This document shows positions 18,001-21,000 of a stretch of 64,000 bases of DNA, piece by piece. Position numbers: made by a program. Every line of letters begins with the position of its first letter. Within the stretch, counting starts at the first letter, position 1. Location: positions 1 to 64,000 of IMG/VR virus record IMGVR_UViG_3300030060_006882; one strand, 5' to 3'. Source of the DNA: a virus.

Positions 18001-21000
18001 GTTTGTTTGAATTAAAATCAGATTTAGGAATCAAGCGTATTTTGCCATCTTGATTAGTCTTAACTATGATGACACGCTTCCACGGACTAGATCCTTCTGT
18101 CTCTTTTTTCCTGTCTACCTGTTTTCTAGCCTTATCTACTTCCTTCTGTCCACCACCTTTAGATCTGGCTTTCTGAACAGCTCTTTCCTTTTCGACTTGA
18201 TTGGCTTTTGTGAACTCCAAAAGCTCACCCTCGAATGACGAGTCAATCCAGTTCTGATCTTCCATGAGTTTTATAGTTTTGTTTTTCATAAGAAATCCTG
18301 ATAATAATTGATCTACTTTATGTATAATAAAAGGGGAGCAGGTTTCCCTGCTCCCCCAACATAATACTACTTAACCGGTAGGTAAAGGGTCTTTGCTGCT
18401 GGATCACCCCCCTTCGTGTGCAATAAAACAATTACCGGCGAAGTATTATTACTTCACTTATAATAAGTGTATAAATTGAACTTGGAGGAAGGAATTTCGA
18501 ATTCAGTAAAACTTTTATTAAACATATTAGGTTTTCCCTTCATTCTTATTTAGGATAAATTACTTTTCATTCGGGTCTTTTTAGCAATTTATACCCTTTG
18601 TGTTGTTTTCTTTCACCACGCAAGGTTCCGTACATTGCTGCCTTATTTAGGTTATTTTCTCTGCAAAATCTAGAAAAAACCTCTATAAGTTCAATTTTCT
18701 TGTCTGGAGTCTCTACAACATATTTGTCAGTATTGTTAGAATAATCTACAGATTCCTGCCATTTTGTCGTTCTTCCAAATCTGTCATTTTGGACAAACTC
18801 CCCTCCAAACATTTCCACAAAGTTCTTTCTGTGAATAATTTTTCTGGCATCTTCATTAACCCTAACCCATGTAGGGGAATTTATTTTATTCACTTCTTCT
18901 TTTACAAACATTTCATTTCTCCATATCTTTTACTATTTTAAATAACATCTTACAAATATAATATGAATCTACAATATCGGTTGCTGGATTGTTGAGTGTT
19001 TTCATATTTAAGACACTTACTAAATTGACACCAGTTTCTTCTAAAAAAGATTCATACATTTCGGTTTTTCCTGCATTTCCCTTTCCAGTCGCATATTTCT
19101 TGACCGCAGATGGTGCTATAGTTTCTAATGGGACACCACGCTGATATAACTTATATTTCAAAACACCAGTATTTTCTGCTATATTGAACACCCTACCAGT
19201 AGCACCATAGGCATAATTTTCTATTGCTACTTGATCTGAAAAATCACACACCTCTACTGCCCATGATGAAATGCTGTCATATCTTTCCTCTTCTGAGTTA
19301 TATTCCTCAAACGATTTTCCATAAAATCTACCCGAGAATACCTCAGAATATTTCTTTTTGTTGGACAAATAATGAAATATACAATTCGTATAGCTCCATT
19401 CATCTCCGACATGAATGCATATTGCAGGGGAAGTTAAACTATAATCAATACCAGATAATACCATAATATAAATATATAGACACCCCGTAGAGAGGTGTCT
19501 ATATTAACAGTGGTGATCCAGCAATCTTTTCTGTATACACTATGTATATAAATTTTATCTTAATAAAATAGGGGTGTCTACAGTAGACACCCCTTCATTT
19601 ATATATCTCAATCACCGAAATCTACACGATTCAATCGTTGAGTACGAACTGGACGGTCTACACCAACGGCACGAACACCATCATCCCAGAGTCCTGCGAT
19701 AGATCGAGCACTCCAAGAAATCCCTCTAGCTGAATGTGGAAGAATTGCAAAAGCAATCAACCAAACTCCAACAGTTACACCAAAAACTCTCTTATTGAAC
19801 CAACCACACGGACATTGATTTGCACAAGGTGCTTTACAATCATTTTTACTACTCATATCATTCTCCTTTATATTAATAATCAAAATTCTAACTGTAACTG
19901 AACTCTGGCAAGGTACTCACCCGAACTAGTGGAAACATTCCAACCAGTTTCGCCAGTGTTCCAACCCGCTGCAATTCCATTCAGTGCATAACCAAAGTCT
20001 GCACCAAGTTTCACATTAGCGTTAAAAAAGTAATTAAATCCACCAGTAATAATACTAAGCTGTTCAGATGTAGTATCAAGTTCACCGTACTGATATTCAA
20101 CATATGGTTGAAGCTCTTTGGTGATATGATATCCTAACTGGCCAGTAGCACCCCACTGTCTACCATTGTCATATTCAGCAGAGACATAAGCACCGTCAAG
20201 AGTCAGATCACCCACGGAGATTCCCGCGTCGGCAGTCCAAGTCCAGTAAGTTACATCTTGCTGATTGTATGAAATGGCAGTTCCGAGGTTCAACCAGTTG
20301 AACACGTCCCAATCCAAACGTCCAGTGGCAGCGTAACCGTTTTGAACACCTGCACCATTTGCAGTATCAAAACCATCACTGTATGCCGCACTAGCAGTAA
20401 GTGGACCAAAATCATGAGACAACTGAACACCTTGAGAACGTCCTTGTCCAAAAGTACTGGAAACAACGGATCGTTCAATTCCGAGAATGTTAGTCTGGGA
20501 AACAAGAACTTCCTTCATGAAGGGAGTCTTGAACTGTCCAAACTTAAAGTTTACACTCTCAAAATCAGAGGATGCCCATGCATCCTTCAGCGAAAAGTCA
20601 CTACCTTCGCTCCATTGTCCACTGACTTTGTAATTCCAGTTGTAAACCGAACCAGAAAGAATAATTCTGACACGAGGAACACTGAAACCGTAATTTGCAT
20701 CGGTATCCGAACCGCTGCTGTATGAGTACCGAGTCTGCAAGAATCCACCAACATTTAATGTTGCAGGCAAATCGTTAGCAAACAAAGTACTTCTGGATGA
20801 TGCGTCCATCATGACGTTATTTGTAATGTCTTCGATGGACGAGTAATCGTTAGCAGCAGCAACTCCGCTTACCGCTAATGATACAATAATAGCACTGATC
20901 TTTTTCATAATTTCTCCTTATGTTTATGATCATTTTGTCAAATCAACAATTTCACAGGAAGATCCAGAACACGCATAACTTTGTGTCCCAGTTGTGTTAT

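Follow-up and report, generated by a model that had tools for sequence, protein, structure and literature searches.

We report a conserved, structured RNA module on the minus strand of an uncultured marine phage. Its central segment, which we call box B, is complementary to the 3' tail of bacterial 16S rRNA and is not followed by a start codon. The module lies in a DNA stretch of 64,000 nucleotides (nt), hereafter the window, which comprises positions 1 to 64,000 of IMG/VR virus record IMGVR_UViG_3300030060_006882. The window is a fragment of a T4-like myovirus whose family-B DNA polymerase is ~51% identical to Synechococcus phage enzymes. The anatomy of the module, its conservation, its covariation and its complementarities were observed directly in the window and in related loci. 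In our reading, to which we give an even chance, box B is a start-less module of extended Shine-Dalgarno (SD) type that docks the host 16S tail in the 3' untranslated region (UTR) of a late transcript; it would be masked by phage copies of the tail, unmasked through a small open reading frame (ORF), and local in its effect.

Phages are known to take over translation by way of proteins, mRNA cleavage, and tRNAs or ribosomal proteins of their own. If our reading is true, an RNA aimed at the anti-SD tail of 16S rRNA is a different route, by which the phage probably steers where host ribosomes bind. The sequence evidence is unusually clear: box B is invariant where the neighbouring protein has drifted to 58% (and to 32%) identity, it sits in a covarying frame, it has no start codon, and it is accompanied by phage-made copies of the 16S tail that could mask it.

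Box B and the 16S tail

Box B (GAAGGGGGGUGAUCCAGCAGC) occupies positions 18395 to 18415 (minus strand). An earlier note, made by reading this DNA alone, had proposed it as part of a candidate phage small RNA, and the sequence and coordinates given there (18415-18395) are exact. Against the reference 16S end GCGGCUGGAUCACCUCCUUUC, which is the actual 16S end of a marine Pelagimonas genome, 20 of the 21 positions pair, 18 of them contiguously; two of these are G.U pairs arising from A-to-G differences, again as the note had it. In 100 shuffles of the window, the 21-mer found no match at three or fewer mismatches. The predicted pairing energy of the motif is -33 to -36 kcal/mol, against -10.3 kcal/mol for the best ribosome-binding site (RBS) in the window.

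Is this complementarity maintained in related phages? We gathered loci through the N-terminal part of the 675-amino-acid (aa) protein encoded downstream, blind to the motif; because they were collected through the neighbouring protein only, the set is unbiased. The unit sits directly upstream of this gene in 25 of 25 loci with a protein 58-99% identical, and it is also present at L060 (protein 32% identical) and its IMG/VR relatives. It is absent from freshwater loci with a protein 26-42% identical. In the alignment of 22 distinct units, the 11-nt core GGUGAUCCAGC is invariant, and the four bases 5' of it show A/G variation only. The conserved 15-nt complement (RGGRGGUGAUCCAGC, 18412-18398 in the window) keeps 15 contiguous pairs with 16S positions 1526-1540 in every unit, and in the S2 lineage and L055 all of these pairs are Watson-Crick. 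Because the core is invariant, the changes next to it are all wobble-keeping, and some lineages lie nearer to the perfect complement than the window does (AGGAGGUGAUCCAGC), the alignment supports strong selection on the complementarity of box B to the 16S tail. Next to it, the block UUGCACACG (18415-18423, minus strand) is invariant or nearly so in all homologs.

The earlier note had seen no AUG at RBS spacing in the window, and had named a conserved start codon behind the motif in homologs as grounds for refuting its proposal. The homologs have none: ATG, GTG or TTG occurs in the 22 nt after the SD core in none of the 22 distinct units. GCA or GCU stands in the place that the start codon takes in rreB (Bradyrhizobiaceae) and rreR (Rhodobacterales), alpha-proteobacterial small mRNAs whose complement to 16S rRNA measures 16-17 nt (Hahn et al. 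2017, RNA Biol 14:1353; PMC5711450). Box B is therefore not an ordinary RBS. Three related possibilities were considered and rejected. A plain RBS or a hidden ORF behind box B (starting at the GTG in GGUGAU or at a non-canonical start) is contradicted by frames and lengths that are not conserved and by indels of lengths not divisible by three. That ribosomes read through or bypass the small-ORF UGA into box B does not fit a frame, relative to the motif, that depends on the lineage, and no consistent landing codon is seen in the alignment. An antisense, plus-strand reading fails because that strand has no conserved promoter or U run and the G.U pairs become A.C mismatches.

A covariance model built from 18 units recovers the left-out distant members L101, L104 and L134 with E-values of 1E-12 to 1E-14; these keep their stems (among them P1, described below) through unrelated sequences. 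By the same model the unit is present in a single copy in the window. In Rfam, the window and four related loci give no match at gathering score and only chance-level matches at E-values up to 10, and tRNA and tmRNA scans give nothing. Neither the intergenic region nor the conserved core has a blastn match among the INPHARED phages. Searching bacterial and archaeal genomes with the family pattern gave no family member among the 120 matches listed, which are chance matches and two 16S gene ends. The 14-mer GGAGGTGATCCAGC meets mostly coding or chance matches over viral contigs, and its count is uninformative. The family is known only from uncultured marine contigs.

The short unit and its alternative folds

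Two minus-strand genes enclose the 277-nt intergenic stretch (18290-18566) in which box B lies. Near the upstream end of this stretch is the late-promoter-like motif CCTAAATA (18547-18554, minus strand), which the earlier note had placed on one side of the segment, with the terminator on the other. All 22 distinct units have it in the form (C/G/A)TAAATA, followed after 3-5 nt by UGAAGGGA. Its resemblance to TATAAATA makes it a putative T4-type late promoter. It is followed by the RBS UGAAGGGAA (18534-18542, minus strand), with AAGG(G/A)A invariant or nearly so 6-9 nt before an invariant ATG (18525), and by the small ORF MFNKSFTEFEIPSSKFNLYTYYK (18454-18525, minus strand), which has 23 codons and a UGA stop (18456-18454). 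The ORF is intact, in frame, 19-23 codons long and TGA-terminated in all 22 units. Its peptide is fast-evolving, with four changes between units whose neighbouring protein is 97% identical; only the start, the length and the position of the stop are kept. The distant lineage has in its stead a hydrophobic ORF of 41-43 aa (L101:2213-2344, plus strand, and its equivalents in L104 and L134), a conserved peptide that starts with M-x-PEPFSGILGT and ends with (Y/F)LPW, and these codons give a CCUUCC / CCUCCC box. As judged from the sequences, the conserved property is a translated ORF that ends just before stem P1.

P1 is a stem of 10-20 bp in which the 5' arm (18452-18433, core 18444-18435) pairs with the 3' arm (18380-18361), both on the minus strand and both defined by RNAalifold and pair counts. 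It corresponds to the long imperfect stem (18361-18380 with 18433-18449) of the earlier note, and it is 90% paired in the alignment, with 7 of 10 pairs changed on both sides. Its loop of ~65 nt contains a U-rich stretch, the invariant UUGCACAC(A)G, the 15-mer of box B, and a CCC box. Behind P1 follows the intrinsic terminator GGGGAGCAGG-GAAA-CCUGCUCCCC with its U run (18329-18357, minus strand), the GAAA-loop hairpin that the note had also pointed out. In this hairpin 99.4% of the alignment cells are paired and 7 of 10 pairs have changed on both sides; it is G+C-rich, all units have the U run, and the pairing is evolutionarily maintained. For the two helices pooled, 94.6% of the cells are paired and 14 of 20 pairs have changed on both sides. 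None of 500 shuffles reaches these values, and slid-alignment controls are only 41-61% paired. RNAalifold recovers both helices. The G.U pairs in P1 and in the terminator, as well as the U runs, fit the minus strand only, which the note had favoured as the functional one. The stem covariation and loop conservation that it had wished to see in a collection of homologs are thus both present, in P1 and in GGUGAUCCAGC, respectively. A conserved, structured minus-strand RNA module is real.

Measured along the predicted transcripts, the site in box B lies ~130 nt behind the start of the short unit, ~1.1 kb behind that of the operon mRNA described below, and ~60 nt ahead of the 3' end. The note's proposal of a late RNA of ~210 nt is supported in part. 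The unit is conserved and structured, and it is bounded by a promoter-like motif and a terminator, as would suit a discrete RNA; it is not purely non-coding (it holds the ORF of 19-23 codons), and in the distant lineage the module forms the 3' UTR of an operon only, its own promoter motif not being seen there.

The unit also contains short C-rich segments that resemble the anti-SD. The C-box CCUUCCUCC (18484-18492, minus strand) lies inside the small ORF, is similar to the anti-SD core, and occurs as CCUUCCYC 33-38 nt before the stop codon in all units. Because its heptamer is found in all three reading frames, the C-box is an RNA-level rather than a codon-level feature. In the minimum free energy (MFE) folds of the full length, it pairs with the SD core in most units. 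In folds from the stop codon onward, which mimic an ORF covered by a ribosome, P1 forms in 18 of 18 units, and the SD core pairs instead with the nearly invariant CCC box (18387-18389, minus strand). The latter pairing, P2, is predicted in all 18 units, although in differing registers. In these folds of the 3' domain, AUCCAG is displayed in the loop with an unpaired probability of ~0.97 in 18 of 18 units. The predicted folds suggest that translation of the small ORF switches the structure.

Immediately downstream, a late-promoter-like motif TATACATA (18319-18326, minus strand; TATA(C/A)ATA) abuts the U run in all units and precedes the gene for the 675-aa protein (16262-18289, minus strand; ATG 18289), which in the window has a 29-nt leader with AGGA. 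In four loci (L049, L053, L054 and L056), the ATG of the homolog stands 5 nt after TATAAATA with no SD (TATAAATAGTAATATG); from this arrangement, a leaderless or near-leaderless late mRNA would begin right behind the proposed 16S-docking module. The 675-aa protein has an HNH_3 match limited to its C-terminal ~50 aa and no relative among cultured phages (tblastn, INPHARED). Its distant homolog at L060 (L060:124-3024) has 966 aa, and the extra N-terminal part looks by eye like a nucleotidyltransferase (TFGRMNPPTRGHEKL).

Box A and the RuvC-like operon

More than one kilobase upstream of box B, the phage carries a copy of the 16S tail itself. Box A (UUGCUGGAUCACC; 19512-19524, minus strand; its plus strand reads GGTGATCCAGCA at 19512-19523) mimics the 16S tail and sits in the loop of stem H1 (19534-19507), which is weak (81% paired). 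Like the small ORF, it does not figure in the finding of the earlier note. It follows a terminator that closes the preceding unit (GGGGUGUCUA/UAGACACCCC with a U run; 19565-19593, minus strand), which was read directly from the sequence and is found in the S1 relatives too, and a second late-promoter-like motif TATACATA (19541-19548, minus strand), conserved as (T/A)ATA(C/T)ATAG. Between box A and the next gene there are a hairpin, H2 (19476-19502, minus strand; 100% of the cells paired, 3 of 7 pairs changed on both sides), and then an A/U-rich stretch. The gene, which is the first cistron of the operon, encodes a RuvC-like Holliday-junction resolvase (18913-19464, minus strand; ATG 19464; PHROG 159, E-value 5E-33) and has no SD at RBS spacing. 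The second cistron (18567-18911, minus strand) encodes a protein of 114 aa with a weak and partial match to PHROG 2081 (HNH homing endonuclease; E-value 4E-6), and it keeps its position in all relatives. As we see no terminator-like hairpin between box A and box B, they would be located close to opposite ends of a single operon mRNA of ~1.2 kb.

The GCUGGAUCA part of box A is invariant and stands 1091-1118 nt upstream of box B in every sufficiently long locus; the distant L101 has it too. After GGAU, box A follows the 16S tail in a lineage-specific manner, with CACCUCUG, CAUCUCUA, CACCCUUUU or CACCACUG, and reaches up to 13 contiguous identities with the tail (L038/L039). The L104/L134 lineage retains box B; it lacks the RuvC-like gene and, over the 2.4 kb upstream, any box A. 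Since box A resembles the tail that box B complements, the two boxes are also complementary to each other, over 12-15 bp; the duplex of the window stops at 12 bp. The complement is conserved at both ends of the predicted mRNA; the core of this long-range pairing is invariant and its flanks do not covary, so that covariation gives no evidence for it.

The same fragment encodes a class II ribonucleotide reductase (RNR) in addition to the RuvC-like resolvase, and its parent record measures 74.7 kb, with a completeness estimate of 41%. Upstream of the operon are a gene for a porin-like phage protein (19880-20908, minus strand), whose nearest Atlas clusters are viral with Porin_O_P in 17-41% of members, and after it a small Cys-rich ORF (19608-19883, minus strand). 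The porin-like gene marks the host, by sequence, as one of Gram-negative type; its nearest bacterial clusters are a mixture of Verrucomicrobiota, Bacteroidota and Pseudomonadota and pick out no single host group. Elsewhere the window contains an ORF of 3658 aa (639-11615, plus strand) and a long series of ORFs of ~100-580 aa with a low G+C content of ~30% (35729-63737, minus strand). About half of the phage's own genes in the window use short SDs. An SD is present in 2 of the 8 genes with a late-promoter-like motif at most 90 nt upstream, compared to 28 of the 53 others (61 ORF starts), a difference that is not significant, with small numbers and some starts possibly mis-called.

Possible partners of box B and comparison with known systems

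Which molecule does box B pair with? In every lineage it pairs longer and with fewer wobbles with the 16S tail than with box A. The core of the A:B duplex shows no compensatory drift at all, whereas P1 has changed in every pair, the terminator in 7 of 10 and H2 in 5 of 7; the absence of drift in the midst of varying helices argues for a third, invariant partner. The predicted net gain after unfolding of the 3' domain is -17 to -24 kcal/mol with the 16S tail, compared to -7 to -22 kcal/mol with the box A leader. Because of the longer pairing, the missing drift, the box-A-less L104/L134 lineage and these predicted gains, we favour 16S rRNA as the primary partner of box B.

From these observations we infer 16S rRNA as the partner, a gate on its access, and an outcome, as follows. 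The 16S tail, and hence the 30S subunit, would dock at the end of a late phage transcript, in its 3' UTR. This transcript may take two forms: the operon mRNA of ~1.2 kb, which encodes the RuvC-like resolvase, the 114-aa protein and the small ORF and has the docking site at its 3' end; and, in most lineages, an RNA of ~210 nt made from the internal late-promoter-like motif (CTAAATA) and carrying box B alone. The C-box and the CCC box would mask the GGAGG core, and box A would mask UGAUCCAGCA. Translation of the small ORF, which stops at the foot of P1, could strip off the C-box and let P1 form, so that the AUCCAG loop is exposed as a seed. The likely outcome would be local control of ribosome loading or retention on a late operon that is poor in SDs. 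In an attractive but unproven variant, box A holds UGAUCCAGCA while GGAGG holds the anti-SD, and the 30S subunit is thereby delivered to the SD-less leader of the RuvC-like gene. The conserved tail mimic in the same operon in most lineages suggests a gated or local function and not a blunt decoy. It is tempting to go further and see here a prokaryotic counterpart of the 3' enhancers of plant viruses, with a 3' UTR that captures 30S subunits and hands them over, through a 5' mimic, to the SD-less start of the resolvase operon, the ends of the mRNA being joined, and a short RNA from the internal promoter that tunes the supply of free host 30S subunits for SD-led messages; we consider this extension doubtful.

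Several points weigh against the docking model. Pairing beyond GAUCA requires the opening of four base pairs at the foot of helix 45 in the established structure of the 30S subunit. The host 16S tail was assumed to be canonical. Both alternative folds place the SD core in a predicted helix, and the C-box shows no specific covariation with the flank of the SD (cognate pairs -10.4 kcal/mol, non-cognate pairs -9.5 kcal/mol). Another candidate hairpin, P0 (GUGAAG/CUUCAC, which includes the stop codon), is 94% paired and was rejected, as only two cells covary and the distant lineage lacks it. The UUGCACAC block has no partner in 16S rRNA: its best sites elsewhere in the molecule, at about -10 to -12 kcal/mol, are at chance level, and its likeness to 16S positions 1390-1398 is what chance predicts. 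In four marine metatranscriptomes there is a single matching contig (167 nt, depth 2), which covers 18151-18314 only and none of the unit, and is silent either way on the expression of the unit. This contig ends 5 nt below TATACATA and does not enter the terminator, a weak hint that the promoter of the 675-aa gene is in use. Finally, overproduction of rreB in Bradyrhizobium causes no growth phenotype (PMC5711450), so that docking need not matter much.

The earlier note had gone on to suggest that the RNA captures 30S subunits or blocks the anti-SD, and thereby re-routes or shuts down SD-led translation. Capture survives as the reading that we favour; global shut-off is less likely, given that about half of the phage genes use SDs and that the operon carries box A. 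As a global decoy, an abundant short late RNA would occupy the anti-SD of many 30S subunits, and box A would neutralise the box B of the long mRNA. The very strong predicted duplex, the unit's own promoter-like motif and terminator, the frequent lack of an SD in promoter-proximal late genes (within the limits of the small, non-significant counts given above) and the apparently leaderless next gene of the S3 lineage, 5 nt after TATAAATA, would all suit such a decoy. Yet blocking the anti-SD would also hit the SD-using genes of the phage, the distant lineage has the module solely as an operon 3' UTR, and a plain sponge needs neither a conserved translated ORF nor three masking boxes; moreover, overexpressed rreB, which binds 30S subunits and is outnumbered by ribosomes, does not slow growth (PMC5711450). 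We regard a global decoy as rather unlikely. It is unlikely, too, that box B and box A merely pair with each other (at the two ends of the mRNA, or with the short RNA acting in trans) and control stability, RNase III processing or resolvase translation, the likeness to 16S rRNA being incidental. The boxes are indeed co-conserved, always ~1.1 kb apart, on what is predicted to be a single transcript; each is presented in a loop, and their cofold is favourable. However, their duplex lacks the compensatory drift of all neighbouring helices, the SD part of box B meets box A by wobbles or not at all (12 bp being the full length of the duplex in the window), box B always fits 16S rRNA better and occurs in one lineage without box A, and box A itself tracks the 16S tail lineage by lineage.

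Two other explanations appear weaker. A start-less SD-like sequence conserved beside a terminator could serve as a roadblock, at which a parked 30S or 70S particle and the terminator hairpin together shield the end of the late transcript from ribonucleases, in the manner of the stabilising SD (STAB-SD) sequences; in rreB, stability does depend on the interaction with ribosomes (PMC5711450). Box B, however, is ~60 nt from a 3' end that a hairpin already protects, known STAB-SD elements, that of cryIIIA among them, act near the 5' end against 5'-to-3' decay, and box A, the C-box and the extension into helix 45 would be left unexplained, so a roadblock seems very unlikely. More doubtful still is a site for a phage or host protein that reads the 16S 3' end or its complement, or a DNA signal in which inverted 12-mers form the ends of a recombining or mobile cassette around the RuvC-like and 114-aa genes. 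Such a site would account for an invariant block that exceeds the 16S complement and takes in UUGCACAC, and the boxes form inverted repeats on either side of two genes, one for a nuclease and one for the 114-aa protein with its homing-endonuclease-like segment. Nevertheless, the differences between the boxes are G.U-compatible transitions, which fit RNA pairing and not DNA repeats; both boxes lie within RNA helices that covary, with G.U pairs and U runs that suit one strand only; gene order at the locus is shared by all relatives, without signs of mobility; and box B can occur without box A.

Sequences of this kind are found in unrelated phages as well. Two jumbo-phage contigs of 250 kb and 117 kb (L032:640-830, plus strand, and L033) carry UAAGGGGGUGAUCCAGCC between divergent genes, in a region unrelated to the present one. 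It agrees with the complement of the 16S end in 17 of 18 bases, and here, too, an A-to-G change preserves a wobble pair. No start codon stands behind it; CCUUCCCGGAUCA and a strong terminator come next, and the gene that begins just downstream has a GGAGG RBS of its own. An unrelated phage 3' UTR (L143:1000-1160, plus strand, and L162) shows a stop codon, a hairpin, a U-rich stretch, UAGGAGGUGAUCCAGCA without a start at RBS spacing, a second hairpin and a terminator, and gives a borderline match to covariance model R1 (E-value ~0.01). In other viral contigs a start codon is present: GUAGGAGGUGAUCCAGC is followed directly by GUG in L160, L184, L197 and L215, by AUG one base later in L122, and by AUG directly in L224. 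Judged by their sequences, these six are rre-like extended RBSs in phages. The start-less 16S-complement theme may be widespread.

How does the phage unit compare with known systems? Full-text literature searches found no phage RNA described as targeting rRNA or the 16S tail. Plant RNA viruses have 3' cap-independent translation enhancers (BYDV-like BTE and relatives). These eukaryotic elements bind eIF4F and keep the rRNA tract apart from the kissing loop. By analogy only, the phage unit shares with them a structured 3' UTR, a complement to small-subunit rRNA and a potential long-distance pairing of a loop to a 5' leader hairpin, by which the translation machinery would reach the 5' end; in the phage, docking and 5'-3' pairing would use the same nucleotides and hence compete or share. 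STAB-SD 5' stabilisers, such as that in the cryIIIA leader of Bacillus thuringiensis, are short (~9 nt), lie near the 5' end and counter 5'-to-3' decay in Gram-positives. They resemble box B in being start-less SD-like sequences with a proposed role in binding the 16S 3' end rather than in initiation, but box B has 15 or more nt, lies in a 3' UTR of a phage whose host is of the porin-bearing (Gram-negative) type, and has partner mimics. Anti-SD hairpins are also known from riboswitches and RNA thermometers, and T4 genes 38, 25 and 49 have split or structured RBSs, leader structure selecting the transcript from which gene 49 (a resolvase) is translated. In such systems, as is predicted here, a G-rich SD is hidden by C-rich anti-SD copies and becomes free when the RNA refolds; there, however, the masked SD is the RBS of a gene, while box B is start-less and one of its masking copies is 1.1 kb away.

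By our analysis, the closest published relatives are rreB and rreR. The rre RNAs are short transcripts (~165 nt) with a promoter and a terminator of their own; the phage unit, of a predicted ~210 nt, lies between a promoter-like motif and a covarying terminator, and in the distant lineage no such motif is seen. In both, the 16S complement extends past GGAGG through UGAUCCA (18 contiguous pairs including two G.U in box B, a family core of 15 nt), the site is partly hairpinned (by prediction in the phage) with a short single-stranded seed, and a tiny ORF is present. The last base of the rre complement, however, is the first base of a GTG (rarely ATG) start codon, and the complement is the RBS of a conserved ORF of 14-18 codons, whereas box B is start-less, the small ORF lies upstream with an ordinary RBS, and the frames downstream are not conserved. 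In addition, the phage site is encoded by a virus, occupies a loop in a 3' UTR, and has a conserved tail mimic as its companion. Since the complement in the phage element does not serve as RBS to an ORF with a GTG start, we do not file this element as a member of rre. By its sequence it is a putative extended-SD ribosome-binding RNA, and what appears novel is start-less docking together with a matching tail mimic encoded by the phage. rreB, with its 17-nt 16S complement, co-sediments with 30S subunits (PMC5711450). The phage unit offers a compact, testable system for 30S docking away from a start codon and for what such docking achieves, and it also bears on the function of the bacterial rre RNAs.

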